Source: a virus (lineage: Duplodnaviria; Heunggongvirae; Uroviricota; Caudoviricetes). Taken from it: a stretch of DNA of 64,000 nucleotides. Positions 26,125 through 49,438 of this stretch are shown here, one piece after another. Made by a program: the position numbers and the translations under genes. The stretch is from the IMG/VR virus record IMGVR_UViG_3300031417_000403, positions 187,133 to 251,132 of that record. One strand, written 5' to 3'. Numbering within the stretch: the stretch's first letter is position 1; every line of letters starts with the position of its first letter. The notes below the pieces were generated by a model. That model was not told where the DNA came from. It saw nothing but the letters and a program-made list of their open reading frames with translations, and ran no database searches.

Positions 26125-27210
26125 ATGAACCAAACACTGATCTGGCTTCTTGTAATTCCGATTGTGCTTGCGCTGGTGTTGTACATCGCTGCACGCAACA
26201 AAGAAGAAGCGCCGATGTTCTCCGGCATCTACGCGGCGGTTGGTCTTACGCTGGTGTTGTCGTGCTTCTTCATCTCGACCGGCTCGAAAGTGTGGGACAC
26301 GGAAGTGCTCAACGGCAAAGTCGTTTCGAAAGATCGTGAGCACGGCACGTACGAAGAATCGTACGAATGCAGATGCCGGACGGTGTCGAGTGGAAGCGGC
26401 AAGAATAAAACCACCAGTCGTGTTTGCGACACGTGTTATCGAACCCATTACACCGTCGAGTGGAACGTCAACACGACTATTGGCGACTATCAAATCGACA
26501 AGCTCGACCGCACATCGCGAAGCGTCTATCATGAACCCGACCCGTCGCGATACACCGTCGTGCAAACTGGTGATCCAGCAGCGAAGACGCATCAATATAC
26601 GAACTACGTGCAGGCAGTTCCGAATTCTCTCTTCACACCGGCAGCGGCTGATTTGAAGAAGAAGTTCGCAGGTCTGATTCCGGCATATCCGGACAAGATT
26701 TACGATCTGTACAAGGTCGATCGTTTCCTCACGCCTGGTTGGAGCATTGCAGACACGGCAGCATGGAATGCTGACATCTCGAATATTCTGCGCGACCTCG
26801 GTCCGAAGAAGCAAGTGAATCTGATCGTCGTCGTGGCGAAGACGGATGATCCGAACTACGAGTATGCACTGCGCGATGCATGGGAAGGTGCAAACAAGAA
26901 CGACGTCGTGCTGATCGTTGGCAGCACGCAATATCCGAAGATCGACTTCGTGCGTGTGTTGAGCTGGACCAAGAACGAAACGTTCAAAGTACAACTGCGC
27001 GATGCAGTGATGGACAAAGGCACGATCGACCGTTCGCTGGTGACCATGTGCGCATCGCAGATAGAACAGAACTTCGTTCGTCGTCAGATGAAAGAATTCG
27101 AGTATCTGAGCGGCGAAATCGATCCGCCTGATTGGCTCGTCACAACGCTGATTGCTCTGCTGATCGTTGGCGCAGTCGGTACGTACGTCTTCATCCAAAA
27201 GCGAAAATAA
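26125..27210 (+). CDS. membrane protein with N- and C-terminal TM anchors (361 aa)
   Basis: hydrophobic termini, Cys-cluster CRCRT...CDTC. Confidence 0.55.
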   Translation: MNQTLIWLLVIPIVLALVLYIAARNKEEAPMFSGIYAAVGLTLVLSCFFISTGSKVWDTEVLNGKVVSKDREHGTYEESYECRCRTVSSGSGKNKTTSRVCDTCYRTHYTVEWNVNTTIGDYQIDKLDRTSRSVYHEPDPSRYTVVQTGDPAAKTHQYTNYVQAVPNSLFTPAAADLKKKFAGLIPAYPDKIYDLYKVDRFLTPGWSIADTAAWNADISNILRDLGPKKQVNLIVVVAKTDDPNYEYALRDAWEGANKNDVVLIVGSTQYPKIDFVRVLSWTKNETFKVQLRDAVMDKGTIDRSLVTMCASQIEQNFVRRQMKEFEYLSGEIDPPDWLVTTLIALLIVGAVGTYVFIQKRK

Positions 27211-27236
27211 GCCTGTACAAGAATTAGAATCCGCCG

Positions 27237-27242
27237 TATAAT
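27237..27242 (+). promoter_or_regulatory. promoter -10 TATAAT
   Basis: cgtataatctctacatcaa. Confidence 0.5.
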
Positions 27243-27275: not shown

Positions 27276-27854
27276 ATGAAACTGAAACGTCAACAAGGTT
27301 CGGGTCTGGTAACTGGTCTGGTCGTCGCTGGTGTCTTCGGCGCGGTACTGCTCGGAGTCGGTGCAAGCTACTTCAGCGCGGCATCGTACGGTAACCGCAC
27401 CGAGCAGCAGCTGAAGGCGAAGTATAGCGACAACGAGAACGTCCTGTCGTCCGGCTATCAGCAACTGAAAGGCGTCGCCGGCGTGACCAAGATGGCCACG
27501 CAAGATCAGATTGATCTGTTCAAGGCAGCAGTGACCGGCCGCTACGGTGCCGACGGCTCGAAGGCCGTGTTCCAATCGATCACCGAGCAAAACCCGGTGC
27601 AGGACCCGCAGCTGTATCGCAAGGTGCAGCAAGTCGTCGAATCGACGCAGAAAGAATTCCAGGTTTCGCAGACGCAGATGCTCGACATCAAGCGTTCGTA
27701 CGAGACCGCGCTCGGTTCGCCGTGGCAAGGCTTCTGGCTCGGTGTCGCCGGTTATCCGAAGATCGACCTGAACAAGTACGTCATCATCTCGAGCGAAGGC
27801 GCGAGCGAAGCGTTCCGCACCAAGAAACAAGCAGCGCCGGACTTCGGCCGTTAA
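27276..27854 (+). CDS. LemA-family membrane protein
   Basis: N-terminal TM plus LemA-like GNRTEQQLKAKYSD...ATQDQIDLFKAAVTGRY pattern. Confidence 0.55.
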   Translation: MKLKRQQGSGLVTGLVVAGVFGAVLLGVGASYFSAASYGNRTEQQLKAKYSDNENVLSSGYQQLKGVAGVTKMATQDQIDLFKAAVTGRYGADGSKAVFQSITEQNPVQDPQLYRKVQQVVESTQKEFQVSQTQMLDIKRSYETALGSPWQGFWLGVAGYPKIDLNKYVIISSEGASEAFRTKKQAAPDFGR

Positions 27855-27869
27855 TCAAAGGACAACATC

Positions 27870-28565
27870 ATGGCATTCGGTAATCTCCTCAGCGGACTGA
27901 AGAACTCGCTGTTCGAAAGCGACGGTTCGCAACCTGCAGCAGAAGCCCCGCAAGGGGCGCCGCAACAGCAGCAAGCCCCGGCGCAAACTCCACGACCGGC
28001 AACGACCGTCGGCAGTGGCATGTCGTTCTCGGCGCCGACCGCCGTCAACCAAGAAATGGTGGCGGCAATTCGCAAGCAAACGATGGGCCGCAACACTGCG
28101 CTCACGGCTCTGATGAACGCGGCAGATCAACTCGCCGACGTGATTCCCGATCCGACGATGCGACTGAAGGCGGCACAGAAAACTGCCGGCGCAGGTCGTG
28201 CAGCTAAGGAATTCGCTGACGCAGTGACGATTCACTTGGCCGACGTCGACGCTGCAGAGATGTCTTTCGGCCAAGCACTGGAAGGCAAGATCAAGTCGGA
28301 AGTCGGCGGACTGAAAGCACAAGCTGGTCAAGCTGAAGCTGCAGTGAACGCCGCCAACAACGAAATCCAAAGTCTGCAGCAACGCATCGCGACGCTGCAG
28401 CAACAGACGATCGAGCAGACGACCGCACTGCACAATTTCAATGCGCAAGCCGCGTCGAAAGAAGCAGAACTGCGTCAAGCTGAGGTAGAATTCAAAGCTG
28501 CCGCAGCACACGTCCGCAACGAACTGAACGGCCACAAAGCAACCATTCTCTCCACCCTCGGCTAA
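27870..28565 (+). CDS. coiled-coil protein (Q/A-rich), unknown
   Basis: 231 aa, heptad-rich C-terminal half. Confidence 0.5.
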   Translation: MAFGNLLSGLKNSLFESDGSQPAAEAPQGAPQQQQAPAQTPRPATTVGSGMSFSAPTAVNQEMVAAIRKQTMGRNTALTALMNAADQLADVIPDPTMRLKAAQKTAGAGRAAKEFADAVTIHLADVDAAEMSFGQALEGKIKSEVGGLKAQAGQAEAAVNAANNEIQSLQQRIATLQQQTIEQTTALHNFNAQAASKEAELRQAEVEFKAAAAHVRNELNGHKATILSTLG

Positions 28566-28577
28566 AAAGGAAAAGCC

Positions 28578-29609
28578 ATGTCGACTAACGAATTCAAACC
28601 AAAATCCTTCTGGGAACGTCCGGAAGGTACGACCGGTATGTTTGCCATCGGGCTCGGAGTGGTGGCAGCATACTTCTCGCTGGACTTCCTCACGCGGCTG
28701 TTCGGCAAGATCATCAACCTGCTGGGCCAAGGCATCGCGATCACGGTGCTCGGCGCGATCCTCTTCGGGCTCATCATGATCCTGACGAACAGCAAGTTCC
28801 AAACGCTGATCGCGTACGGGTTCAAGAGCGTGATGCGAAAGATCACCGGCGCCTTCGTCGAAATCGATCCGATCGGCATCATGAAGTCGTACATCGACGA
28901 TCTGAAGTCCAAACGCGGCATCATGGAAGAATCCATCGCGAAGCTGCGAGGACAAGTACAGGTCTGCAAGAAACAAGTCGAGCAGAACGACATCGAGTAC
29001 GAAAAGCAGATGTCCACGTTCAAGGTCGCGCATGAAAAAGGTCTGGGCTCTGCTGCAACCGTCGCATCGCGTCAAGCCGGCCGACTCGAGAAGTTGAACA
29101 AGGAATCGCTGAAGCCGCTGCTGTTGCAGATGGAAGTCCACCTCAAAGCGCTGATGAAATACTACGAAGTGACTGGCACCGTCATCGACGACCTGCACAA
29201 CGAAGTGAAGGCGCAAGAGATGCAGCGCAAGATGATTCAAGAATCGTACTCGGCCATGTCGACTGCGAAGAAGATTCTGATGGGCGGCACCGATCAACGC
29301 GAGCTGTTCGACCAAGCGATGGAATATGTCGTCAACGACTACGGCATGAAGATGGGCGAAATCGAGAACTTCATCGAGAACTCGAAAGGTTTCGTCGAAG
29401 GCCTGGACCTGCAAAACGGCGTGTACGAAGCCGATGCACTGAAGAAGCTGCAAGAGTGGGAAAACAAAGCTGACTCGATCCTGCTCGGCAACCACAAACA
29501 GCAGATGCTGGAACAGAGCACGTACGACTCGACTCTGTACAACGGCATCGGCCAACCGGCTGCTCAGCAGTTCGACTACAGCCAACTATTGAACAAAAAA
29601 GATCAATAA
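28578..29609 (+). CDS. membrane-anchored coiled-coil protein (possibly TelA/PspA-like)
   Basis: TM hairpin at N-terminus then long helical region; 343 aa. Confidence 0.45.
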   Translation: MSTNEFKPKSFWERPEGTTGMFAIGLGVVAAYFSLDFLTRLFGKIINLLGQGIAITVLGAILFGLIMILTNSKFQTLIAYGFKSVMRKITGAFVEIDPIGIMKSYIDDLKSKRGIMEESIAKLRGQVQVCKKQVEQNDIEYEKQMSTFKVAHEKGLGSAATVASRQAGRLEKLNKESLKPLLLQMEVHLKALMKYYEVTGTVIDDLHNEVKAQEMQRKMIQESYSAMSTAKKILMGGTDQRELFDQAMEYVVNDYGMKMGEIENFIENSKGFVEGLDLQNGVYEADALKKLQEWENKADSILLGNHKQQMLEQSTYDSTLYNGIGQPAAQQFDYSQLLNKKDQ

Positions 29610-29677
29610 TTTCTGTACCAATGATGAACTGTTCATCATTGGTGTCTCATGCTGTCTAACTTGAAAATGGAAATAAA

Positions 29678-30436
29678 ATGAAAACTCGTCTTATTACAGC
29701 TGTTAGCCTTGCAATTGTCTGCAGTGGCTGCGCTAATCTTCACACATACACTGCATCAAAACCAGCAGATGGAAATACAACGCTGGTATTCAAGCAAGGT
29801 GTCGGAACACTGGCATCATCAGAACCAGAAGGCGACATCGTGATTTATCCAACGTTTCGACTGTTGAATTCAGGTGCCATTCCAACGTTCAGCATTTACT
29901 ACATGAATAAGACTGACAAGCCGGTCGATTTTTCAAACGCCAACGTGAAAGTATTCTGGCGAGGTGCACAAGTTGGCCTCTACACGTTCGAAGAACGTAC
30001 TGCTGAAATCCGTAGCAATAAAATGAAAGCCCAAATTCTGATGGCCGTTGTCGGCGGTGTAGCAGCGGCATCTGCTGCGCACTCGGCATCGCACCAAACA
30101 ACAACGTACAACGCCTACGGTCGTAATGGTTGGATCGGCGGCGGCCAAATCAATACGTACAATCCTGCCGCTGGTATGCTGGCTGCTGGTACTGTTGGCG
30201 CAGCAACTGGTGTAAGCATCAATCAAATTGAACGGTACGCAGCAAACGACGAAGTTCGCGCACAAGCATTGCTGCAACAAAACACTGTATTGCCACAAGC
30301 CAATGTCGACGCGCAACTGATGGTAAAAAACTGCTGTGATGACAATGTGACCGCCAATGATGAAATGCGGTTTGAAGTCACTGTCGGCGGTAAAACAAAA
30401 ACGTTCGCTTTCAACCGCAATACAATCAAGCAATAA
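29678..30436 (+). CDS. lipoprotein (AT-richer gene)
   Basis: lipobox LAIVCSGC; 252 aa. Confidence 0.55.
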   Translation: MKTRLITAVSLAIVCSGCANLHTYTASKPADGNTTLVFKQGVGTLASSEPEGDIVIYPTFRLLNSGAIPTFSIYYMNKTDKPVDFSNANVKVFWRGAQVGLYTFEERTAEIRSNKMKAQILMAVVGGVAAASAAHSASHQTTTYNAYGRNGWIGGGQINTYNPAAGMLAAGTVGAATGVSINQIERYAANDEVRAQALLQQNTVLPQANVDAQLMVKNCCDDNVTANDEMRFEVTVGGKTKTFAFNRNTIKQ

Positions 30437-30464
30437 AAATCAACACGAAATTCGTCGATGGGTG

Positions 30465-30470
30465 TATAAT
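30465..30470 (+). promoter_or_regulatory. promoter extended -10 ggtgtataat
   Basis: TGn-TATAAT. Confidence 0.45.
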
Positions 30471-30547
30471 GCACTCATCGGCTCTTTTTAGTAACCGAAA
30501 ACCTAAAGTCTGACAGGGCTTAGTTTATTAACTTTGAAGGAAATTAA

Positions 30548-32200
30548 ATGAAACTCAAACCTTTGCCAAAAGCAATTCTGGTCGCAGTCGTTCTCGCTGG
30601 TGTCGGCTTCGGCGTTCACACCGCGATGAATAAAGGCTACTTCAAGTCGCGCGCTACGATCGAAGCATCCGTGCCGGACAAGATCGACCTCCCAACTGCA
30701 GCTGCAAACCAGACCGCGTCGACCGGCACCATCACCACTGCAGCAGTGAACTCGCACGAAACCATCCGCGTCAAGACCCTCGCATGGAACGCGACGGCCG
30801 GCATGCACTACGCCAACGGCGACGCCGACACGACCTCCGATTCGCTGATGGCGAAGCGTGGCCTGAAGGTCAACATCCGTCGCGAAGACGACTACAGCAA
30901 GATGATCGCCGATCTGGCATCGTTCGCCAAAGACAACTCGACCGGCGTGCACTTCGTCGTCATCATGGGCGACGGCTATCCGGCATTCGTCAAGGGCGCC
31001 AACGACGCACTGAAGCCGTTCGACCAATCCGTCGAAGTGGTGGGCGCACTGGGCTACAGCCGCGGCGAAGACAAGTGCATCATCGACAAGAATGCACGTC
31101 CGCAGGGTTCGCTGATTGCTGGCGTGCTCGGCGATGGCGACATCAACATCTGCATCAAGTATGCGGCCGACAACGGCATCAAGGTCAACTCCGATCCGAA
31201 GACCTACGATCCGGAAGCGATGAACTTCGTGGGCGTTTCGTCCTTCACCGACGGCGACGAGAAGTTCATCGCTGGCGCAAGCGACCGCGGCCATCCGATC
31301 AACGGTACCGCAACCTGGACCCCGGGCGATGTCAAAGTTGCAACGAAGCGCGGCAACATCAAGGTGCTGGCGTCGACGAAAGAATACGCATGGCAGATGC
31401 CGGCCGTCGTGATCGGCAATAAGAAGTGGATGGCTGCACACCCGAACGAGGTGAAGGCTTTCCTGGCGGCAGCATTCGAAGGCGGTGAAGCAGTTCGCAG
31501 CAGCGATCAAGCACTGCTGAAAGCCGGCGCGGTCGAAGCCAAGGTGTATGGCGAAGGCGATGCGAACTACTGGGCCAAGTACTTCAAGGGCACGACTGAA
31601 AACGGCGTATCGCTCGGCGGCTCGACCACGAACGGACTCGCAGACAATGCGTTCTTGTTCGGCCTGAAAGGCGCCGACAACCTGTACAAGAAAGTGTACA
31701 ACGTGTACGGCAACATCGCGGTCAAGTACTTCCCGGACAACCTGCCGAAGCTGATTCCGTACGATCAAGTTGTGAACACCTCGTATCTCGAGGGCCTGCT
31801 GCAGAACTCGAACGTGAGCGTCGAATCGGCTGCTACGCCGACGTACGGTGGCCAGAAGTCCGAGGTCGTCGGTAACAAGTCGTACAGCATCGAGTTCGAC
31901 ACCGGCAAGACGACCTTCAAGCCGGCATCGATCGCTGTGCTGAACGAGCTGCTGGACCAGATCGCTGTCTCGGGCCTGTCGGTGCAAATCAACGGTCACA
32001 CCGACAGCAAGGGTAATCCGGAAGCAAACCTGGCCCTGTCGAAGAAGCGTGCTGAAGCAGTGGCGAACTTCCTCCGCGCGAATGCGCCGAGCAACTTCCC
32101 GGCCGAGCGTATCTCGACCCGCGGCTTCGGCGACACGCAGCCGATCGGTTCGGATGCTCAGAACCGCCGCGTGGAAATTGTGTTGTACTCCACGAAGTAA
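30548..32200 (+). CDS. membrane-anchored periplasmic solute-binding-like domain fused to C-terminal OmpA-like peptidoglycan-binding domain
   Basis: N-terminus paralogous to the 36706 gene; C-terminus NGHTDSKGNPEANLALSKKRAEAV (OmpA_C motif); 550 aa. Confidence 0.6.
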   Translation: MKLKPLPKAILVAVVLAGVGFGVHTAMNKGYFKSRATIEASVPDKIDLPTAAANQTASTGTITTAAVNSHETIRVKTLAWNATAGMHYANGDADTTSDSLMAKRGLKVNIRREDDYSKMIADLASFAKDNSTGVHFVVIMGDGYPAFVKGANDALKPFDQSVEVVGALGYSRGEDKCIIDKNARPQGSLIAGVLGDGDINICIKYAADNGIKVNSDPKTYDPEAMNFVGVSSFTDGDEKFIAGASDRGHPINGTATWTPGDVKVATKRGNIKVLASTKEYAWQMPAVVIGNKKWMAAHPNEVKAFLAAAFEGGEAVRSSDQALLKAGAVEAKVYGEGDANYWAKYFKGTTENGVSLGGSTTNGLADNAFLFGLKGADNLYKKVYNVYGNIAVKYFPDNLPKLIPYDQVVNTSYLEGLLQNSNVSVESAATPTYGGQKSEVVGNKSYSIEFDTGKTTFKPASIAVLNELLDQIAVSGLSVQINGHTDSKGNPEANLALSKKRAEAVANFLRANAPSNFPAERISTRGFGDTQPIGSDAQNRRVEIVLYSTK

Positions 32201-32256
32201 GCTGATGTACAATAGGGAGACCTCCGGGTTTCCCTAATTTTCTTTCAGGACTCAAC

Positions 32257-32448
32257 ATGCTTATCATTCTCGGCTACATCGTTCTCGGCATCGTCATCTA
32301 CAACGTTCCGTCGATGATCGCTCTGCTTCGACTCCACAACAACGGCCATCGCATCGTCATGATGAACATGGTACTCGGTTGGACCATCGTCGGCTGGTTC
32401 ACTGCACTGTTCTGGTCGCTACAATCTCCGACGGCTGACTACAAATGA
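32257..32448 (+). CDS. imm: superinfection immunity (Imm-family) membrane protein
   Basis: NMVLGWTIVGWFTALFWSL matches Imm_superinfect family core; 63 aa, 2 TM. Confidence 0.55.
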   Translation: MLIILGYIVLGIVIYNVPSMIALLRLHNNGHRIVMMNMVLGWTIVGWFTALFWSLQSPTADYK

Positions 32449-32585
32449 ACCAAGCGTTCTACGAGCATGCGAAGAAAATCATAGAGAATCTGACTGTTGA
32501 AGAGCTCTATGAAGCACTCACAAAAGCCGGCATCGACGTGACGGTTCGACAATATCCAGAACCCGAGAAAAAGGACGAAGAATGA
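32445..32585 (+). CDS. small hypothetical protein (46 aa)
   Basis: ATGA overlap. Confidence 0.3.
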   Translation: MNQAFYEHAKKIIENLTVEELYEALTKAGIDVTVRQYPEPEKKDEE

Positions 32586-32824
32586 AAGCAAGTCTGATAG
32601 TATTAGCTTTGATCGCTGCAAGTCTTTCGGCCTGCATGCGTAAGGAAAGGCCGGAACCGCAGCCGACCAATGCTGCCAACGTGAAGATCGTAAGCGTAGA
32701 ACCGGGTAACTATAATGTTTACCAACACTGCATCAAGGGCGTCGCTTACCTCACGTATTCGAAAACCATCATCGTTCAAGTGACCGAAGATGGTAAACCT
32801 CAGACATGTGTGGTGTCGCCATGA
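32582..32824 (+). CDS. small lipoprotein (80 aa)
   Basis: lipobox LSAC. Confidence 0.5.
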   Translation: MKASLIVLALIAASLSACMRKERPEPQPTNAANVKIVSVEPGNYNVYQHCIKGVAYLTYSKTIIVQVTEDGKPQTCVVSP

Positions 32825-33027
32825 CCAAAACCAAACGTAAGACCAAGCAAGACAAGCTGGACCAAGAAGCTCGTACCAGAATCATTGCATCGCTAAATAA
32901 TTTCTTCTCCGACTTGAACGAAATCAGTAATGACACTGGTTACGACATTCCGGACTTGCACTACAACAGCTTGTCGGTTCTGCATCGTGAACTGTGCGAG
33001 CAGAGGGAGAAACATGATGCTGCATAA
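32821..33027 (+). CDS. hypothetical protein (68 aa)
   Basis: ATG overlapping upstream TGA. Confidence 0.4.
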   Translation: MTKTKRKTKQDKLDQEARTRIIASLNNFFSDLNEISNDTGYDIPDLHYNSLSVLHRELCEQREKHDAA

Positions 33028-33235
33028 ACTTTCCGACTGGTACGACAGCCTGCACGAGCCATACCGCTTCTTCACGTTCATCTACTTTGTGTTCGGTGCA
33101 TTCTTCCCGTTCGCAATGGCGATGTTCACGTTCGACGCCAAGATTATCTTCTGGCCGTACGTGTTCGCGACGTTGGGCATGCTGCATCTCGCGTTCTTCT
33201 ACTCATTTGCCATCTACCGGGCAACTCGAAAGTAA
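33014..33235 (+). CDS. small membrane protein (73 aa)
   Basis: two hydrophobic helices. Confidence 0.45.
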   Translation: MMLHKLSDWYDSLHEPYRFFTFIYFVFGAFFPFAMAMFTFDAKIIFWPYVFATLGMLHLAFFYSFAIYRATRK

Positions 33236-33237
33236 AA

Positions 33238-34026
33238 ATGTTCAACTCACTGTTTACACCTTTTTATGCTGGGCGCAAGTTCAGCATCAAGTTTCTTGCA
33301 GCCTTTCAACTCGTGGTTCTCGCGGTTGTATGGGTTCTGTTGCCGGCAAGCAGTGGTATTCCGTCGCCATCGGCAATCGCCTCCGCGTGGAACGACCTTG
33401 CACTGAAGCAAGGTCTTCTGCTGGAACTCTTTAAGTCCGTAGCCGTGATCTGGGAAGCGCTCATCCTGTCAGCGTTAATTTCCTTCGGCGCTGCCTACCT
33501 CACAACTGCGGACTTCTTTAAACCTGGAGCAACGTTCATCGCGTCGCTCCGATTCCTCGGCTTCGCCGGTCTGACGTTCCTCTTCACACTGTGGGTTGGC
33601 GGAAATGGTTCGCACCTGAAACTGGCCATGTTGACGTTCGGCATGACTGTGTTCTTGATGCGGTCGACCGTGGACGAAATCAAAGCGATTCCATTGGAGT
33701 CCATCGACTACGCTCGATCGCTGGGCATGAACGGATGGCACATCACATATGAAATCGGTGTGTTGGGTCGACTGCATGTGATGCTGGACCTGCTCCGCCA
33801 AAATGCGGCAATCGGCTGGACGCTGATCGTGATGGTTGAATCGTACGTCCGCAGCGATGGTGGTATCGGTGCTCTGCTGGCGGTGCAAGCAAAGTACTTC
33901 AACCTGCCGGCCGTGTTCGCGATTCAACTGACGATTCTCGCGTATGGTATCATTCAAGATATGTTGCTTGATCTGCTGCGCGCCACCGTCTGCCCTTACA
34001 CCAATCTAAACCGGAGTGATCGATAA
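33238..34026 (+). CDS. ABC transporter permease (binding-protein-dependent, SsuC/TauC/NrtB-like)
   Basis: 6 TM pattern with EAA-like loop ESIDYARSLGMNGWHITYEIGVLGRLHVML. Confidence 0.75.
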   Translation: MFNSLFTPFYAGRKFSIKFLAAFQLVVLAVVWVLLPASSGIPSPSAIASAWNDLALKQGLLLELFKSVAVIWEALILSALISFGAAYLTTADFFKPGATFIASLRFLGFAGLTFLFTLWVGGNGSHLKLAMLTFGMTVFLMRSTVDEIKAIPLESIDYARSLGMNGWHITYEIGVLGRLHVMLDLLRQNAAIGWTLIVMVESYVRSDGGIGALLAVQAKYFNLPAVFAIQLTILAYGIIQDMLLDLLRATVCPYTNLNRSDR

Positions 34027-34427
34027 TGGATCGCAAAATTGCACTGAAGTGGGCACGTGCCCTTGAAAGCGGCGAGTATGGCCAAACAACCGGCGCACTG
34101 CGTGAAGGCAACAAGTTCTGTTGTCTTGGTGTCCTCTGCAATCTGCATGCTCAAGCACATCCAGAAATTGCAAAGGACGAAACTGACCCAGAGAAATACA
34201 TGGGCAAAGAAGGCGAGCTGCCGGAACAAGTGATGCACTGGGCCGGCATGCGATCCGATAATGGAAAAATCGGTGATGGCGTGAGACTCAAAGTCCGCGA
34301 CAAGAAGAGCCACAGTCAAGACGAGATGACAGAATACATTCGCGATCTGATCGATCTGAATGACCATTACGAATTCGACTTCCCAAAGATCGCGAAAGTA
34401 ATTCGCGAACATTCCGACAAACTGTGA
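34026..34427 (+). CDS. hypothetical protein (133 aa)
   Basis: ORF track. Confidence 0.5.
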   Translation: MDRKIALKWARALESGEYGQTTGALREGNKFCCLGVLCNLHAQAHPEIAKDETDPEKYMGKEGELPEQVMHWAGMRSDNGKIGDGVRLKVRDKKSHSQDEMTEYIRDLIDLNDHYEFDFPKIAKVIREHSDKL

Positions 34428-34450
34428 TGTGCAAGAAATAGGTTACGAAG

Positions 34451-34456
34451 TATAAT
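34451..34456 (+). promoter_or_regulatory. promoter -10 TATAAT
   Basis: gtataatggcttcgtaacc. Confidence 0.45.
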
Positions 34457-34497
34457 GGCTTCGTAACCTAACTGCACAGGAGATTAAAGGCTAACCA

Positions 34498-34791
34498 ATG
34501 TCATTTCCAATTCGCCCACTGGGCCCAAAAGACGTCGTGAAGAGCGGCATTCCCGAATTTGTCATCGAAGCGGTCAACGAACTCATCAGTGAGAAGTACA
34601 ACGATAGTTCGTTCGTCATTCGTCAGAACGAAGTGAAGGATCGCATCATGTCGAAGACCACACAGGACTTCGACTGGGAATGGCTCAACTTCGAAAAAAT
34701 TTACCGCGACGCAGGGTGGTACGTCGAATACGACAAACCCGCTTACTGCGAAAGCTACGAAGCATTTTTCAAATTTACTCCGAAAAGATAA
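34498..34791 (+). CDS. hypothetical protein (97 aa)
   Basis: ATG after gtataatggcttcgtaacc...ggagattaaaggctaacc. Confidence 0.5.
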   Translation: MSFPIRPLGPKDVVKSGIPEFVIEAVNELISEKYNDSSFVIRQNEVKDRIMSKTTQDFDWEWLNFEKIYRDAGWYVEYDKPAYCESYEAFFKFTPKR

Positions 34792-34794
34792 AAC

Positions 34795-35649
34795 ATGAGT
34801 TCGAATACCGCTAAAAGCCCCAACGTCCTGCTGTATGGTATTGCAGGTCTCGTCATCATCGCCATCGCCACGTTCTTCCTCGTGTGGCTGTTGGCCATGC
34901 GAACCGAGACCGTGGAACCCGGCCACGAGCTGGTCATCATCGACAAGCCGTACTTCTTCGGCTCCAGCGGTGTACGCGATGAAACCCTGAAGCAAGGTCG
35001 TATTCTGCTGTTCCGAACGTCGGACGTCGAGCCGGTACGAATGACACCGCAATCATACAACGTCAAGTTCGACGACCTGTCGTCGGCAGACAACATCTTG
35101 CTGGACTTCGAATCCACGATCCAGTTCAAGATTACCGACGCGAAAGTGCTGGTGAGCAAGTTCGGATCGAAGGATTGGTTCGTCAACAACTTGCAACGCC
35201 AATACATGTCGATCGTGCGCGAGGCTGTCAAGAAGGAAACCATGACGGACATGATGTCCAATGCTGAAACGTCGACACGTGTTGACACCTACGTTACCGA
35301 TGCGCTGCAAAAGCTCGTGGCGGAAAGCAAGTTGCCAATCGCGATTCTCGGCGTTACGCTGGGTCGTGCGAAGCCGAACGACAACGTCTTGCTGCAGATG
35401 AACGAGACCGCTGCTCAACAGCAACGTAACAAGACGTTGATCGCCGCGACCGCTGCAGAAGAACAACGTGCGAAAGAGCAGACCGCAAAGGCCGCAGCTG
35501 ACAACGCGTACCGTAACGCGCTGGGCATGAACAGCGAGCAGTTCATCCAACTCGAAGCCATCAAGCGTTACTCCGAAGCCTGTGCCAAGTCGGAACGCTG
35601 CATCGTGACTCCGGGCATGGGCACCAACGTGCTGGTAACTGGAAAGTAA
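34795..35649 (+). CDS. SPFH/band-7 (stomatin/HflK-like) membrane protein
   Basis: N-terminal TM, SPFH core, Ala/Gln/Glu-rich coiled-coil tail. Confidence 0.65.
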   Translation: MSSNTAKSPNVLLYGIAGLVIIAIATFFLVWLLAMRTETVEPGHELVIIDKPYFFGSSGVRDETLKQGRILLFRTSDVEPVRMTPQSYNVKFDDLSSADNILLDFESTIQFKITDAKVLVSKFGSKDWFVNNLQRQYMSIVREAVKKETMTDMMSNAETSTRVDTYVTDALQKLVAESKLPIAILGVTLGRAKPNDNVLLQMNETAAQQQRNKTLIAATAAEEQRAKEQTAKAAADNAYRNALGMNSEQFIQLEAIKRYSEACAKSERCIVTPGMGTNVLVTGK

Positions 35650-35650
35650 A

Positions 35651-36448
35651 ATGGAATACAAACTCGAAGAACGCATGCTGACCATCACTGGTCTTGGCTT
35701 GTCGTACGGTAACAAAGTCATCTTGCGCGACATCAACCTCGTGATCGACAACGTGGTACGACCGGGGCTGAATCAAGGCCAGTGCGTCGCGCTGCTCGGA
35801 CCGTCCGGCTGTGGCAAGACGCAGCTGTTCCGATGCATCGCCGGTCTGCAACGACCGACGCTCGGCACGATCGAGTTTGGCGAAATCGAAGAAGGAAAAA
35901 TCGGCAAAGCGCCGGAGCCCGGAAGTGTTGGTGTTGTGCAGCAAGCATATCCGCTGTTGCAACACCGCACCATCATGGGCAACCTAACGCTCGTCTGCAA
36001 AGACAAGAAGAGGGTTGTCGAGATGCTGACTCGTTTCGGCCTGCAAGATCATGGCGACAAGTATCCAGTGCAGTTGTCTGGTGGTCAACGTCAACGCGTT
36101 GCCATCATTCAACAGATGCTGATTTCCGACCGTCACTTCTTGTTGATGGACGAACCGTTCTCCGGTCTCGACATCATCGCAAAAGACAAGGTGTGCGATC
36201 TGATCAACGAAGTGAATCTCGTTGATGAACTGAACACGACCATCTTCACTACACACGATCTAGAATCCGCGATTCAAATCGCCGACACGATCTGGGTGAT
36301 GGGTCGTGAAGAAGGAAAACCCGGCGCGACGATCGTCAAGATATACGATCTGAAAGCCATGGGCCTTGCGTGGCAGCCCAACGTGACGAAGCATCCAATG
36401 TTCGTGCCACTGCTGAACGAGCTGCACGATTTGTTTCATACTCTGTAA
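35651..36448 (+). CDS. ABC transporter ATP-binding protein
   Basis: Walker A GPSGCGKT, signature LSGGQRQRVAI, Walker B LLMDEPFSGLD. Confidence 0.85.
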   Translation: MEYKLEERMLTITGLGLSYGNKVILRDINLVIDNVVRPGLNQGQCVALLGPSGCGKTQLFRCIAGLQRPTLGTIEFGEIEEGKIGKAPEPGSVGVVQQAYPLLQHRTIMGNLTLVCKDKKRVVEMLTRFGLQDHGDKYPVQLSGGQRQRVAIIQQMLISDRHFLLMDEPFSGLDIIAKDKVCDLINEVNLVDELNTTIFTTHDLESAIQIADTIWVMGREEGKPGATIVKIYDLKAMGLAWQPNVTKHPMFVPLLNELHDLFHTL

Positions 36449-36478
36449 TCTGCTGTGTACAAATCCGGTACCACAGGC

Positions 36479-36484
36479 TATAAT
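36479..36484 (+). promoter_or_regulatory. promoter -10 TATAAT
   Basis: ggctataatagcttcacataaccaaacggagtttgaATG. Confidence 0.5.
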
Positions 36485-36511
36485 AGCTTCACATAACCAA
36501 ACGGAGTTTGA

Positions 36512-36694
36512 ATGAACACGAAAAGTCAGAACATCGAAAATCAGATCGATGACGCGCTCGAAGCAGGCGATGCCAATAAGCTGGACTTGGCGTTGCGTGC
36601 ACAGTATCACTTCCAGTGCCGCGGCATGTCGGTAAGTACCGAAGGCCACGAGTACGATTTGGTCAAGACCATTGACCCGAACTTCTACGGATAA
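36512..36694 (+). CDS. small hypothetical protein (60 aa)
   Basis: ATG after ggctataatagcttcacataaccaaacggagtttga. Confidence 0.4.
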   Translation: MNTKSQNIENQIDDALEAGDANKLDLALRAQYHFQCRGMSVSTEGHEYDLVKTIDPNFYG

Positions 36695-36705
36695 GGACCA
36701 ACATC

Positions 36706-37815
36706 ATGGCAAAGCTCAAAGCTCTCCCAAAAGCACTGATCGTCGCAGCAATCGTCGGCGCCGCCGGTTTCGGCGCGTACAAGTTCATGCCGAAGCATGA
36801 CAAGACCGAAGTGGCCGAAACGAAAGACGCCGAAGTCGCGGCAGCACCGGAAGTTCAACGTGGCGATCCCGTCGCACCGCGTGAAGAACTGCCGACGCGT
36901 GAACCCGCAAGCGTGAACGCGGTACCATCCGAATCCTCGCTCGAAGTCGCAAACGGCCAGAAACTTCCTGGCGCCGGCATCGCGTCCGGCCAGAAGACCG
37001 GCACCAACTATCCGATGGTCGAAGACATCATCAAGGTCTGCTCGACGCCGGATTACCCGCTGCGCAACGTCATCACCAACGGTTCCGTCGACAACATCAA
37101 CAAGATTTACACCGACAAGAACTCGCAGTTCGGCATCATTCAAGAAGATGCGCTGGACTACCAACGCAAGATCGATCCGAAGATGATGTCGCGCGTCGTC
37201 GCAGTCTTCCCGTTCTTCTCGGTCGAAGTCCACGCCATCGCCAAGAACGGCGCACCGATCAACTCGCTGGCTGACATGGCCGGCAAGCGCGTAGTGGAAG
37301 GTCCGGAAGGTTCCGGCACGTGGGTTACCGTGCAGCTCATCAAGCAGATGACCGGCATCAAGTGGAACACTGTGTCCGGCAACCTGTCGCAGAAAGACGG
37401 TCTCGCTGCAGTGCAACGTGGCGACGCCGACGTCGAGTTCATCGTGGCCGGTCAACCGATCACGGTGCTGACGACCGCCAAAGGCATCAAGCTGGTGCCG
37501 CTGAGCAATCCGACGCTCGACAAGTACGGGTACTACACGAAGACGTCGCTGGCATCGCACACGTACGGCTTCCAAGGCGACGCTGTGCCGACGTACAAGG
37601 TCAACAACGTGCTGGCCACGTTCGCGTACAAGAACCAGTACCAGAAGGAAATCGGTACGCTCGTCAGCTGCATCACGAAAAACGTGGACAACCTGCAAGC
37701 TGATGGTCATCCGAAATGGCGTGACGTCGATCCGCTCGACATCGAACGGGTGAACTGGCCTGTGCATCCGGCCGCACTGGCCGCAATCAAACGTGAAGCG
37801 AAAGGTCGTAAATAA
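36706..37815 (+). CDS. membrane-anchored periplasmic solute-binding protein (TAXI/NMT1-like fold)
   Basis: N-terminal anchor paralogous to the 30548 gene; GQKTGTNYPM resembles TAXI GxTGG-YYP motif. Confidence 0.6.
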   Translation: MAKLKALPKALIVAAIVGAAGFGAYKFMPKHDKTEVAETKDAEVAAAPEVQRGDPVAPREELPTREPASVNAVPSESSLEVANGQKLPGAGIASGQKTGTNYPMVEDIIKVCSTPDYPLRNVITNGSVDNINKIYTDKNSQFGIIQEDALDYQRKIDPKMMSRVVAVFPFFSVEVHAIAKNGAPINSLADMAGKRVVEGPEGSGTWVTVQLIKQMTGIKWNTVSGNLSQKDGLAAVQRGDADVEFIVAGQPITVLTTAKGIKLVPLSNPTLDKYGYYTKTSLASHTYGFQGDAVPTYKVNNVLATFAYKNQYQKEIGTLVSCITKNVDNLQADGHPKWRDVDPLDIERVNWPVHPAALAAIKREAKGRK

Positions 37816-38333: not shown

Positions 38334-39149
38334 ATGAAGAAGCTGTTTGTTACTCTGTTGTGGATGATTTCAGCGACGTGTTCTGCCGCGAAGTTCAACT
38401 CACAGTCAGTGTTCGTTATTGAAGACGGTGGTCAAGTGTTGTTCGAAAAACAACCTGACCTCGTCAGCCCAATCGCGTCACTGACAAAACTCATGACTGC
38501 AATGGTAGTGCTGGACGCACATCAGAACATGCAGGAAATAATTACGATTCAACAGTCTGATGTCGATGAAATCAAGCACAGCATGTCACGTGTTCGTGTT
38601 GGTTGGCAGATGACACGAGCAGAGGCGTTGGAACTCGCGCTGATGCACTCCGACAACAGAGCTGCAACTGCACTGGGCAGAACGTATCCAAGCGGACTAC
38701 CAGCATTCCAAGAAGCAATGCGAGCGAAAATCGCAGCATTGGGACTTCGCGGAACATCGATTGTAGAACCATCCGGACTCTCGCCAAGCAATGTATCCAC
38801 CGCACGTGATCTTGCCATCATCGCAATAGCGGCATCAGCATATCCAGACATCACCCGCATCACCACGACCGAATTGGTTCAAATCCACGGTACAAATTTC
38901 AAGAACACCAACAGATTAGTTGGCGCAAACGGCTGGGACATTCGTCTGTCAAAGACTGGTTACATCGAAGAATCAGGTCGATGCTTTGTCATGAGAATCG
39001 TCGCTGCTGGTAAAACTGCAACCATCGTCTTGCTCAATGCTGGATCGAGTTCAGCTCGCATGCAAGATGCGTGGACAATCCGTCGCGCAATCACTGGCGA
39101 ACCCTCACCGAAGCCGCAGAAGCACAAGAAGAAAAAGCGTCGCAAATAG
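38334..39149 (+). CDS. D-alanyl-D-alanine carboxypeptidase/endopeptidase (low-MW PBP, S11 family), secreted
   Basis: signal peptide; SxxK SLTK, SxN HSDN, KTG LSKTG motifs; TAG stop. Confidence 0.75.
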   Translation: MKKLFVTLLWMISATCSAAKFNSQSVFVIEDGGQVLFEKQPDLVSPIASLTKLMTAMVVLDAHQNMQEIITIQQSDVDEIKHSMSRVRVGWQMTRAEALELALMHSDNRAATALGRTYPSGLPAFQEAMRAKIAALGLRGTSIVEPSGLSPSNVSTARDLAIIAIAASAYPDITRITTTELVQIHGTNFKNTNRLVGANGWDIRLSKTGYIEESGRCFVMRIVAAGKTATIVLLNAGSSSARMQDAWTIRRAITGEPSPKPQKHKKKKRRK

Positions 39150-41058: not shown

Positions 41059-42282
41059 ATGGCACACAGCGAAATCAAGACGCGTAAGCGTCTGACGGTC
41101 TTCATTGGCCGTTTCCAACCGTTCCATAATGGTCACGCCCATATACTGGAACAGGCAATTGAATCTTCGGACAAAGTCCTGGTACTCGTCGGAAGTGCAT
41201 TCATCGCCCGCAACATTAAGAATCCGTTTACGTTCAGCGAACGTTTCGACATGATTAACGCTTGGGTTCTTCAGAACTATCTGACGACTGACAAGTGGCC
41301 TATCATCAAGCCGGTGGTTGACCAATACAATACCCCAAAGTGGTTGCAGTTGGTTCAAGAAACCGTCGATGCGACCATCAAAGAAGTTGGCTGGAAAGCC
41401 AGCGAAGTTGATGTCGCCATCACTGGCGCCGATCGTGATTCGACAACGTGGTATCTCAATTCATTTCCTCAATACATCAGCGACCTCAAACCAGCAATCG
41501 ATGCTGGCGAAGGGCTGTCTGCATCGAAACTTCGTCATCGTCTGTTCAGCGACAACTTCGGTGGTGCAGCCAACTGGCTTGATGTGCCGCTGACGACCGT
41601 GAACTTCCTTCGCCAATTTCATGGCACGAAGGAATTCGAAACGCTTCGTGAAGAGTACGAGTTCAACGTCAAGTACAAGAATCCGCACGCACCACTGCTC
41701 AAGGCGATCCTTGACTTCGTGCCTCACCGCTATCACGAGAAGATCGTCGACATCTTCGACTCGTGGCTCGCGAAGCAATACGACCGCACGTACGTCACGG
41801 CCGACGCCTGCATTATCCAGTCCGGCCACGTGCTTGTTGTTCGTCGCGGTGCACTGCCTGGTAAAGGTCTGATCGCTCTGCCTGGCGGCTTCGTCAAAAG
41901 TAATCAGACGCTGCTGCTCGCCGCAATCGCAGAAGCGATCGAAGAAACTGGTCTAAAGCTGGCTGACGGAAAGAACTGGCGGAAGATCACCGAAGCAATT
42001 CTGCGCGGCTCGTTGGTTGCTACGCGGAACTTCGACGATCCGAACCGCAGTCTTCGTGGTCGTACGTTCACGACTTGCCACCTCTTCCGTCTCGATGATA
42101 CGAAGCCGTTGCCGATCGTGAAAGGCCAATACTTCCCAATCGAAGATATTGGTGTTGATGGTGTAGTGGAAACTGAAGATGCTTTCTTCATGCCAATCTC
42201 TGTTGCTCTGGCAAATCCTGAATGGTGGTTTGAAGACCATCATATCATGCTGAGCACGATGCTCGGTTTGATTAAAGATTAA
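41059..42282 (+). CDS. nadM: bifunctional NMN adenylyltransferase / Nudix ADP-ribose pyrophosphatase (NadM-type)
   Basis: N-terminal GRFQPFHNGH (HxGH nucleotidyltransferase), C-terminal Nudix box GGFVKSNQTLLLAAIAEAIEETG. Confidence 0.8.
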   Translation: MAHSEIKTRKRLTVFIGRFQPFHNGHAHILEQAIESSDKVLVLVGSAFIARNIKNPFTFSERFDMINAWVLQNYLTTDKWPIIKPVVDQYNTPKWLQLVQETVDATIKEVGWKASEVDVAITGADRDSTTWYLNSFPQYISDLKPAIDAGEGLSASKLRHRLFSDNFGGAANWLDVPLTTVNFLRQFHGTKEFETLREEYEFNVKYKNPHAPLLKAILDFVPHRYHEKIVDIFDSWLAKQYDRTYVTADACIIQSGHVLVVRRGALPGKGLIALPGGFVKSNQTLLLAAIAEAIEETGLKLADGKNWRKITEAILRGSLVATRNFDDPNRSLRGRTFTTCHLFRLDDTKPLPIVKGQYFPIEDIGVDGVVETEDAFFMPISVALANPEWWFEDHHIMLSTMLGLIKD

Positions 42283-45117: not shown

Positions 45118-45290
45118 TCGTTCCATACATTCTCACGATGGTGTTTACCGTCGGCATGAGCCAAGGTGGTGTGGCAACCCTGAAGGTCGAGTACAACTCG
45201 CAGGCCACATGCAACGCCGCCATGGAAGCAAACCGTGAAAGTCTGCGTGGTCAGGCTTCGATCGTACTCGCAACCTGCACGAAAAAATAA
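45114..45290 (+). CDS. small secreted/hydrophobic protein (GTG start, uncertain)
   Basis: ORF track. Confidence 0.3.
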   Translation: MIVPYILTMVFTVGMSQGGVATLKVEYNSQATCNAAMEANRESLRGQASIVLATCTKK

Positions 45291-45300
45291 GGAAATCAAC

Positions 45301-46530
45301 ATGTCGAAATCTATCGCAGTTATCGGCGCCGGTTATGGCGACGAAGGCAAAGGCCTTGCAACCGACTTCTTCTCGCGTCACTACAATGCAGCCATGGTGG
45401 CTCGCGGCAATGGTGGCGCACAAGCTGGTCACACTGTCGTCGATGGCGATAAGCGACATGTCTTCGGCCACGTCGGCTCCGGCGCGTTCGCTGGTGTTCC
45501 AACGTATCTGAGTTCCGGCTTCATCGCGAATCCGTACATGCTCAATCGTGAGCTGAAAGAACTCGGCACTCGCCAACGCGTCTACATCTCGCCCAACAGC
45601 CGCGTCACCACGTACTACGACATGGCCATCAACTCGCTGATCGAAATCAAGCGCGGTGCGGCACGTCATGGTTCGTGCGGCATGGGCATCAACGAGACCG
45701 TCACGCGTGATCTGGCCGGCTACCATCTCGACATGGCAACCATCAAAGGCAGCGAGTTCGGTATCGCACAAGCCCTGCAGAAAATTCGCGGTCAATGGGT
45801 TCCGAAGCGTATGCAGGAACTCGGCCTGAACAAAGCTGACTTCGAAGGCAACGAAGACGCAATGCGTTTCTTCGAGTACTTCGACGAAACCCAAACGCAA
45901 GTCGAAGACCTGATGCACTATGGCGACATCATGTCGCTGCAGAATCCGAAGTTGTTCCTTGGACAAGATGATGTCGTGGTCGTCGAAGGCGCACAAGGCC
46001 TGATGCTCGACGAATTCCTTGGCGACTTCCCGCACGTCACGCGTTCCGTTACTGGTCTCGCATCGTCGATCCGCGCTGCAGCTGAATGCGGTCGCACGTC
46101 GATCCGTCCAGTGTACATGACTCGTTCGTACGCGACGCGTCACGGTGCCGGCGAACTGCTGTACGAAGGCGCAACCATCACCGACAAAGAACTGGTCGAC
46201 AAGACCAACGTCGACAACCAATGGCAAGGCTCGATCCGTTACGCTCCGCTGAATCTGCATGCGCTCGCATGGTATATCCGCGAAGACATGAAGCGTGGCC
46301 AACACGTTGCACAGCTGTTCGGTGTCGAGGTTCTTCAGCCGAAGCTGTTTGTGACCTGCCTCGACCAACTCGACGAGCACGTGACGATCGTCACCCGCAA
46401 CAAGGACATGCTCAAGCTGAAGTCGGTGAAGCTGCTGGCGTACATCGAAAAAGTCATGGGCATCGAAGTCTGTGCTGCATCGTACGGTCCGTCGGCTGCT
46501 GATGTTCAACTCCTCCACGAAGTACTGTAA
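45301..46530 (+). CDS. purA: adenylosuccinate synthetase (PurA-like; PurZ not excluded)
   Basis: P-loop GYGDEGKG, GGAQAGHTV, EGAQGLMLDEFLGDFPHVTRS match PurA motifs; 409 aa. Confidence 0.75.
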   Translation: MSKSIAVIGAGYGDEGKGLATDFFSRHYNAAMVARGNGGAQAGHTVVDGDKRHVFGHVGSGAFAGVPTYLSSGFIANPYMLNRELKELGTRQRVYISPNSRVTTYYDMAINSLIEIKRGAARHGSCGMGINETVTRDLAGYHLDMATIKGSEFGIAQALQKIRGQWVPKRMQELGLNKADFEGNEDAMRFFEYFDETQTQVEDLMHYGDIMSLQNPKLFLGQDDVVVVEGAQGLMLDEFLGDFPHVTRSVTGLASSIRAAAECGRTSIRPVYMTRSYATRHGAGELLYEGATITDKELVDKTNVDNQWQGSIRYAPLNLHALAWYIREDMKRGQHVAQLFGVEVLQPKLFVTCLDQLDEHVTIVTRNKDMLKLKSVKLLAYIEKVMGIEVCAASYGPSAADVQLLHEVL

Positions 46531-49362: not shown

Positions 49363-49438
49363 GCCTCGTTAGCTCAACTGGCAGAGTGGCGGTCTCTAAA
49401 ACCGAGGGTTGCGGGTTCGATCCCCGCACGGGGCACCA
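49363..49438 (+). tRNA. amber suppressor tRNA, anticodon CUA (tRNA-Trp-like anticodon arm), CCA encoded
   Basis: cloverleaf: acceptor gcctcgt/acggggc, anticodon arm gcggt CTCTAAA accga, T-arm gcggg ttcgatc cccgc. Confidence 0.7.

Follow-up and report, generated by a model that had tools for sequence, protein, structure and literature searches.

The region at positions 27276-37815 of the 64,000-nt window analysed here (positions 187,133 to 251,132 of the viral record IMGVR_UViG_3300031417_000403) is a mosaic around a five-gene envelope cassette; Imm, both lipoproteins, an SPFH protein and several small open reading frames (ORFs) have been inserted among its genes in this lineage. The cassette encodes a coiled-coil protein of 231 residues (CC231), a PspA/ESCRT-III-like protein of 343 residues (P343), a 550-residue solute-binding protein (SBP) fused to an OmpA-like domain (SBP-OmpA), and the permease and ATPase of an ATP-binding cassette (ABC) importer. 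The cassette belongs to an operon type that has scarcely been described in bacteria and of which no report in phages was found, and it probably functions as a working type I ABC importer that acts together with the PspA-like membrane protein. The source of the window is an uncultured jumbo phage of ∼375 kb; an identical copy of SBP-OmpA was found on metagenomic contigs of that size.

A five-gene cassette conserved across huge phages

When IMG/VR was scanned with a fused-protein alignment, full-length relatives (29-86% identity) turned up at 69 loci, the longest contig measuring 578 kb; the presence of the permease and the ATPase in these loci was scored by tblastn. Clustering of all ORFs of the related loci recovered one fixed order on a single strand: CC231, P343, SBP-OmpA, permease, ATPase. 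Wherever a locus reaches far enough downstream, the last three occur together almost without exception. The permease is present in 64 of the 69 loci, and the other five end close to the SBP gene; 62 loci have the ATPase, those without it ending near the SBP gene or soon after. P343 lies directly before the SBP-OmpA gene in 49 loci, and in one clade a divergent form takes the same place (18 more loci); one ORF of LR756500 matches the profiles of both forms. The CC231 family adjoins the PspA-like gene on its upstream side in 62 of 72 clustered loci. LR756500 and LR756501, published huge-phage genomes of 462 and 735 kb, also contain the full cassette.

Relative to their nearest relatives, SBP, permease, ATPase and P343 have ratios of nonsynonymous to synonymous substitution rates (dN/dS) of 0.07-0.15 (0.09-0.15 for SBP-OmpA), approximate values given that dS is saturated. 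Purifying selection on these genes is strong.

All ORFs listed by the initial annotation of this region are present, on the plus strand and at the positions it gave. Its view of the whole 10.5 kb as a single membrane island or functional unit was not supported: only the five genes are conserved together. The GC content of the region equals that of its flanks, and base composition is uniform across the window, so the region is not a compositional island.

The binding protein combines a TauA-like fold with an OmpA-like domain

SBP-OmpA consists of an N-terminal transmembrane anchor, a disordered linker, a solute-binding domain (residues ∼70-420), a further linker and an OmpA-like domain (residues 446-550). 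The last was matched by Pfam (PF00691) at 4.6e-17, with 62.6 bits against a cut-off of 27.2. An AlphaFold2 (AF2) model built with 29 homologues has a predicted local distance difference test score (pLDDT) of ∼90 for residues 70-420. In a Foldseek search of the PDB, its best binding-protein match was TauA (E 5e-12, TM-score 0.74-0.77), followed by CmpA, SsuA, NrtA and ThiY, and the C-terminal part of the model matched OmpA-like domains. NMT1 was matched by eight of the 29 homologues. The fusion that had been proposed from the sequence is therefore supported for both of its parts. The second-best Foldseek match, PDB 6aeo, possibly a construct in which a binding protein is fused to an OmpA-like domain, spans the whole query with a TM-score of 0.23 and a root-mean-square deviation (rmsd) of 22 Å, and was treated as uninformative. 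The viral structure library BFVD contained no fused protein with binding-protein and OmpA parts.

In an alignment of 121 sequences (71 phage and 50 bacterial, with identity down to 28%), the cleft-side motifs W80, R112/D114, E174/D175, D196/D198 and T256-D261 are at least 97% conserved, as are T485-D486, L497-S498 and R501-A502 of the OmpA domain. In the secondary structure of the model the cleft motifs sit at strand ends and helix starts, a position that would correspond to the binding-protein cleft. As a speculation, this Asp/Glu/Trp-rich cleft may hint at a cationic or polar ligand. Ligand contacts are not transferable from the solved binding proteins, because identity to them is only 9-17%. 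D486 and R501 of the OmpA domain correspond to the conserved Asp and Arg that contact the peptide stem in OmpA and Pal structures.

The permease and ATPase are of the importer type

The permease carries an EAA-like coupling motif, D157-YARSL-G163, in line with the EAA loop noted initially. Many of its 533 homologues match PF00528 (BPD_transp_1), and their JGI name is NitT/TauT permease. The window permease gave weak matches in NCBIfam to SaoP, PhnE and SsuC, and a comparison with PDB sequences returned nothing even at E ≤ 1. In one related locus (L006, 4140-4767), the permease homologue lies in two pieces in different reading frames; a frameshift, a misassembly or decay into a pseudogene could each account for this.

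The ATPase matches Pfam ABC_tran at 4.1e-26 and contains the full set of catalytic motifs: Walker A (GPSGCGKT), Q-loop (VVQQ), signature (LSGGQRQR), Walker B (FLLMDEP) and H-loop (TTHD). Its nearest matches in NCBIfam and the PDB are importer ATPases (PhnT2, CysA, PotA, TauB and NrtD), and it aligns with CmpD/NrtD over its full length. Together with the permease family and the conserved cleft, these matches bear out the claim that a complete, importer-type, binding-protein-dependent ABC system is encoded here. The system falls in the NitT/TauT family rather than with exporters or immunity-type ABC systems, and its binding protein has a cleft conserved at 97% or more.

P343 is a probable membrane-anchored PspA/ESCRT-III relative

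P343 has two transmembrane segments (residues 20-38 and 52-70), followed by a predicted helical hairpin (residues 98-234) with a pLDDT of 80-90 in the AF2 model; the whole model has a pLDDT of 62, and the C-terminal 110 residues are poorly modelled. In a Foldseek search of the PDB, the top 17 matches were all Vipp1, PspA or ESCRT-III (CHMP1B), with a best E value of only 7e-4. The predicted hairpin superposes on residues 1-144 of PspA (4whe) with a TM-score of 0.81 and an rmsd of 1.4 Å. In a Pfam search with 129 diverse family members, 40 matched PspA_IM30 (E ≤ 1, the strongest at 7.3e-8); second came a generic coiled-coil family, matched by 15 of these relatives. The matches listed in a search of representatives were all strong family members, with no bridge to named PspA proteins, and the source names of its relatives are all "hypothetical". 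P343 is thus a probable membrane-anchored member of the PspA/ESCRT-III superfamily, an assignment that draws on the fold search and the family-wide Pfam matches because the sequence-profile searches, given below, were not significant. Both this likeness and the bacterial operon type had been missed in the initial annotation, which described a "coiled-coil" protein.

CC231 begins with a short amphipathic stretch, continues through a Q/A/P linker of low complexity and ends in a coiled coil. No transmembrane segment was predicted for it, so that of the two coiled-coil proteins said to be membrane-anchored, P343 alone retains that description. Pfam searches with 74 CC231 members returned generic coiled-coil families only, and a profile comparison between CC231 and P343 revealed no relationship.

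Bacterial copies and a reduced cassette in a cultured phage

At least 573 bacterial matches to the fused protein were found (one genome per species), including isolates with megabase contigs. Isolated strains of Undibacterium, Collimonas, Emticicia and Abditibacterium carry the cassette, and the chromosomal copies in Undibacterium and Collimonas have the exact gene order of the window. The five genes of Undibacterium sp. TS12 keep this order too and have as neighbours genes for a chemoreceptor, a POT transporter, KdpD, RtcB and a thiolase, which indicates a chromosomal operon.

In a neighbour-joining tree of 113 fused proteins, which is rough, without support values, and includes a few "bacterial" contigs from metagenome-assembled genomes (MAGs) that are probably phage, phage and bacterial sequences are interleaved with at least 10 switches. 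This interleaving suggests repeated exchange between phages and bacteria. The clade of the window stands beside a Burkholderiales clade, and this placement suggests that the phage has a host of the Burkholderiales type.

A reduced version is present in the cultured Ralstonia phage RsoM2USA (L003, 9975-12852, gp55-gp52). It comprises CC231, P343, a 122-residue ORF (gp53) consisting solely of an SBP-OmpA-type membrane anchor with its linker, and then an anchored binding protein of the TAXI family; no permease or ATPase was found within 12 kb on either side.

Comparison with known systems

Ravi et al. 2024 (mSystems, PMC11237479) briefly noted bacterial operons that encode PspA, a PBPb+OmpA protein, a permease, an ABC ATPase and TM-Snf7 (example OGG56892.1), and suggested that such operons link membrane remodelling with solute transport. 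The phage cassette shares with them an N-terminally anchored SBP-OmpA fusion, a permease, an ATPase, a membrane-anchored ESCRT-III-superfamily protein and an extra helical protein, all co-oriented. It differs in the lack of an AAA+ ATPase and in an order unlike that of the Handelsmanbacteria example, the likeness to OGG56892.1 being one of architecture alone. In the bacterial operons, a double AAA+ ATPase accompanies PspA/Snf7-type operons occasionally but not universally (PMC11237479); no classical AAA+ family appeared in the Pfam results for the genes at 26-40 kb of the window. The huge-phage setting is not mentioned in that study (PMC11237479), and no experimental study of any member of this PspA-SBP-OmpA-ABC operon type was found in the literature. 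The cassette was likewise not found in literature on phage ABC importers and on PspA/ESCRT-III in huge phages. The jumbo-phage reviews examined make no mention of a transporter, a binding protein or an OmpA-domain protein. The Jug-phage paper does not mention the cassette either; an unrelated pspA-like gene is located beside terD in these phages.

The binding-protein fold, the permease family and the short ATPase are those of TauABC, SsuABC, NrtABCD/CmpABCD and ThiXYZ. The cassette departs from these NitT/TauT importers in the low identity of its binding domain, in its acidic and Trp-rich cleft and in the linked PspA-like gene, and the combination of an inner-membrane anchor with an OmpA-like domain is found in none of the matched TauA, SsuA, NrtA, CmpA and ThiY structures. 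P343 is predicted to have the long alpha-helical hairpin of PspA, Vipp1 (IM30) and ESCRT-III, and its family gives recurrent weak-to-moderate PspA_IM30 matches, but two transmembrane helices at its N-terminus take the place of the amphipathic helix of PspA and Vipp1.

Among phage proteins, cyanophage PstS is a phage-encoded stand-alone binding protein, and the BFVD search showed that orphan TTT/Bug-type binding proteins occur in uncultured phages. Like them, the cassette SBP is a periplasmic binding protein encoded by a phage and probably bacterial in origin. Whereas the stand-alone proteins use the transporter of the host, the cassette adds its own permease and ATPase and tethers the SBP to both membrane and wall. 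A complete importer with a PspA-like partner, conserved in ∼70 huge-phage loci, exposes a gap in the phage literature. The interleaving of phage and bacterial copies and the strong purifying selection point to a cassette that truly benefits the fitness of phages of very large size, and the phage copies define a minimal five-gene core of the bacterial operon. Cultured carriers, both the bacterial isolates and, in reduced form, RsoM2USA (gp52-55), could serve as test systems.

Proposed function and alternative explanations

The favoured model builds on gene content, folds, motifs, synteny, purifying selection and bacterial homology, from which we infer the direction of transport, the cooperation with the PspA-like protein and the timing of expression. 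The N-terminal helix of the SBP would hold it at the inner membrane, and the OmpA-like domain would fix it to peptidoglycan. It would capture a small periplasmic solute in the conserved cleft and pass it to the NitT/TauT-type permease, with the ATPase powering uptake. P343 and CC231 would act with the transporter and probably stabilise or organise the surrounding inner membrane. Expression from phage promoters could put the uptake of one solute, and the integrity of the membrane during infection, under the phage's own control, while the later insertions (Imm, which would exclude other phages, the SPFH protein, the lipoproteins and the TAXI binding protein) would have separate roles. Supplementing nutrient uptake, as first proposed for this region, is plausible; the fixed link to a PspA-like gene suggests that the role is not simply nutritional.

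Several results weigh against this importer model. The window permease itself misses the Pfam threshold, so that its BPD_transp_1 assignment holds at the level of the family. The window P343 matches PspA_IM30 with an E value of 0.17 and 11.9 bits, under the gathering score of 33.9. Searches of P343 profiles against PDB sequences gave no significant match, only generic coiled-coil noise, and hhalign comparisons of P343 with single E. coli PspA and Synechocystis Vipp1 sequences were not significant either. The reduced cassette of RsoM2USA suggests that the PspA-like pair may partner anchored binding proteins and not the transporter. In the window, inserted genes, promoter-like motifs and hairpins interrupt the cassette, and joint expression may fail. 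Finally, sequence alone reveals neither the substrate nor the direction of transport.

A possible but unlikely explanation is that membrane remodelling or the response to envelope stress is the main task of the cassette, with the SBP as a periplasmic sensor or tether and import secondary or absent. The ABC module would then signal to or energise the PspA-like protein, replacing the AAA+ ATPase of some bacterial versions. The strict synteny of P343 and CC231 with the ABC genes agrees with this, as do the retention of CC231, P343 and an anchored TAXI protein by RsoM2USA without nearby ABC genes, and the Vps4-like AAA+ ATPase that bacterial versions sometimes have and the phage cassette does not. 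An SPFH gene also lies within the cassette in the window and in locus L008, and links between PspA and SPFH/Band-7 proteins have been published (PMC8581546, PMC11237479). The cleft, on the other side, is as tightly conserved as in true transport receptors. The only known role of type I BPD_transp_1 permeases is, to our knowledge, import, and we know of no precedent for an importer-type ABC module driving ESCRT-III-like polymers, both of which count against such a machine. A rather doubtful variant would have the ABC module and wall-anchored receptor coupled, mechanically or by regulation, to an ESCRT-III-like polymer, with the ABC ATPase in a Vps4-like role; if true, the cassette would remodel or hold the host inner membrane through a long infection cycle rather than feed the phage.

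The remaining explanations fare less well than the importer model. That all ∼17 genes form one nutrient-uptake island, with two paralogous binding proteins serving one importer, would account for their common orientation, the many envelope proteins and the membrane anchor common to both binding proteins. It is improbable: conservation is limited to the five genes, related loci lack counterparts of Imm, the lipoproteins and the small ORFs, and TAXI proteins are another binding-protein family that normally serves TRAP transporters and that carries a signal-peptide-like N-terminus in place of the anchor in most relatives. An Imm-family gene within the cassette in the lineage of the window, and the resemblance of the OmpA-like domain to the MotB-like part of Zorya ZorB, could point to a superinfection-exclusion or anti-phage device that alters the envelope against DNA injection by competing phages. 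Imm is absent from all other loci, PADLOC returned generic domain matches only and no defence-system assignment, and the bacterial copies lie among ordinary chromosomal genes outside defence islands, making this highly improbable. As for decaying passenger DNA or bacterial contamination of the phage contig, the apparently split permease of L006 and the probable mis-binning of some "bacterial" MAG matches (L077, L078) are the observations that would fit. The motifs are intact, purifying selection is strong, the cassette is kept in ∼70 diverged phage loci, its flanks are phage genes and a tRNA array, and base composition is uniform; this explanation is effectively refuted by the conservation data.

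Lineage-specific insertions and transcription signals

In the window, insertions specific to its lineage have split an old cassette (Table 1). The 252-residue protein, Imm, the 80-residue lipoprotein, DUF8296 and other small ORFs have no counterpart in related loci; a 97-residue ORF recurs in six closer loci. For the 252-residue protein there was no homologue in the 69 IMG/VR loci and no family match; it is also present in the near-identical contig L007. Both it and the 80-residue protein had been called lipoproteins, a designation that the canonical lipobox of the latter supports; the former, with only a non-canonical site, is a secreted protein or probable lipoprotein. The Imm, SPFH and ABC ATPase assignments were all borne out, Imm with 53.5 bits against a cut-off of 27.9 for Imm_superinfect and transmembrane segments at residues 3-21 and 33-51. 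The SPFH gene is common to the window and L008 only.

Table 1. Features of the cassette region and its surroundings, in window coordinates
Feature	Position	Strand	Remarks
Promoter-like motif TGTACA-N17-TATAAT	27214-27242	+	More copies at 34428-34456 and 36456-36484
192-aa membrane-anchored protein	27276-27854	+	Outside the cassette; phrog_1383, 2.9e-50
CC231, 231-aa coiled-coil protein	27870-28565	+	Cassette gene 1
P343, 343-aa PspA/ESCRT-III-like protein	28578-29609	+	Cassette gene 2
252-aa secreted protein or probable lipoprotein	29678-30436	+	Between P343 and SBP-OmpA; non-canonical VCSGC site
Second terminator-like hairpin	30454-30482		Just upstream of the SBP-OmpA gene; by position only
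SBP-OmpA, 550 aa	30548-32200	+	Membrane-anchored binding protein with OmpA-type anchor
Terminator-like hairpin	32213-32236	+	Directly after the SBP-OmpA stop codon; by position only
Imm, 63-aa T4 Imm-family superinfection immunity protein	32257-32448	+	Imm_superinfect, 2.2e-14
80-aa lipoprotein	32582-32824	+	Insertion; canonical lipobox LSAC
ABC importer permease	33238-34026	+	NitT/TauT family
SPFH/Band-7 protein, membrane-anchored	34795-35649	+	Between permease and ATPase; Band_7, 1.5e-17; transmembrane segment 16-34
ABC ATPase	35651-36448	+	No additional regulatory domain
TAXI-family (TRAP-type) solute-binding protein	36706-37815	+	Accessory
Secreted D-alanyl-D-alanine carboxypeptidase or endopeptidase	38334-39149		Peptidase_S11, 9.8e-48

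The protein encoded 3' of the ATPase belongs to the TAXI family (TIGR02122, 5.8e-27, 94.4 bits against a cut-off of 84.35), with an NMT1_3 assignment and TAXI matches in the PDB as well. It had been described as a second, paralogous SBP on the basis of its N-terminus. The similarity is real for the first 28 residues, of which 14 are identical to those of SBP-OmpA (E 2e-5), and there is no paralogy beyond them; the window TAXI protein carries a copy of the SBP-OmpA membrane anchor and linker. A TAXI gene lies 3' of the cassette in 16 clustered closer loci, mostly with a signal-peptide-like N-terminus, and the MAKLKxLPKA anchor is confined to the window and L008. No TRAP membrane subunit (fused DctQ/M) was matched among the tested plus-strand ORFs of the window, and no ORF of the window is longer than 576 residues.

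Insertions were also observed in other lineages. One phage clade (L052-L076) has a secreted protein of ∼163 residues, with a signal-peptide-like N-terminus, between SBP-OmpA and the permease in 18 loci; examples are found in L057 and L045 (12322-12912). Loci L067 and L068 have two additional ORFs 3' of the ATPase that cluster with the SBP-OmpA family and may be duplicated or fragmented binding proteins.

The degenerate motif TGT[A/G]CA-N17-TATAAT has 15 matches in the window (1734-55841), 14 of them on the plus strand, where 0.05 would be expected; example sites are 1734, 4678, 17778, 27214, 36456, 42291 and 44800. The three copies of the region are all intergenic, and the motif probably represents the phage's own sigma-70-like promoter class. 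The two hairpins next to the SBP-OmpA gene are called terminator-like from their position alone, as hairpin totals are no higher than in shuffled sequences.

Genomic setting

All substantial ORFs of the window are on the plus strand. Besides the cassette, the window encodes a DNA ligase, an RNA ligase, a NadR-like enzyme and an adenylosuccinate synthetase, and 26 tRNA genes form an array at its end. Among cultured phages, the neighbouring genes find their closest relatives in the jumbo phages Burkholderia FLC9, Xanthomonas XacN1 and Ralstonia RsoM2USA. GenBank phages gave no megablast match to the region. That the phage is virulent was an assumption of the initial annotation.

The first gene of the region, annotated initially as LemA-like, showed no match to Pfam LemA even at E ≤ 10 and belongs to phrog_1383 instead. 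With the preceding gene (26125-27210, phrog_2087) it forms a conserved membrane-protein pair that is shared with FLC9 and XacN1 and occurs in more than 400 cultured phages from widely differing groups, among them Vi1-like Salmonella phages, Aeromonas phages (Aeh1), ICP1 and phiW-14. In some phage records phrog_1383 is labelled "virion structural protein". Just 3' of the region, the envelope-directed Peptidase_S11 gene has no counterpart in related loci.

A tRNA with anticodon CUA (49363-49438), labelled tRNA-Pyl by ARAGORN, lies upstream of an array of 25 tRNAs. Among 30 checked genes, 24 end in TAA, five in TGA and one in TAG. An amber-reading tRNA and rare TAG stops raise the possibility of amber suppression or partial recoding. 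Further downstream of the cassette, NAD and nucleotide genes are found at 41059-42282 and 45235-46530 of the window, encoding a NadR-like cytidylyltransferase with a NUDIX protein and the adenylosuccinate synthetase, and the relative L005 (17491-21547) encodes NAMPT and a PnuC-like NMN transporter.

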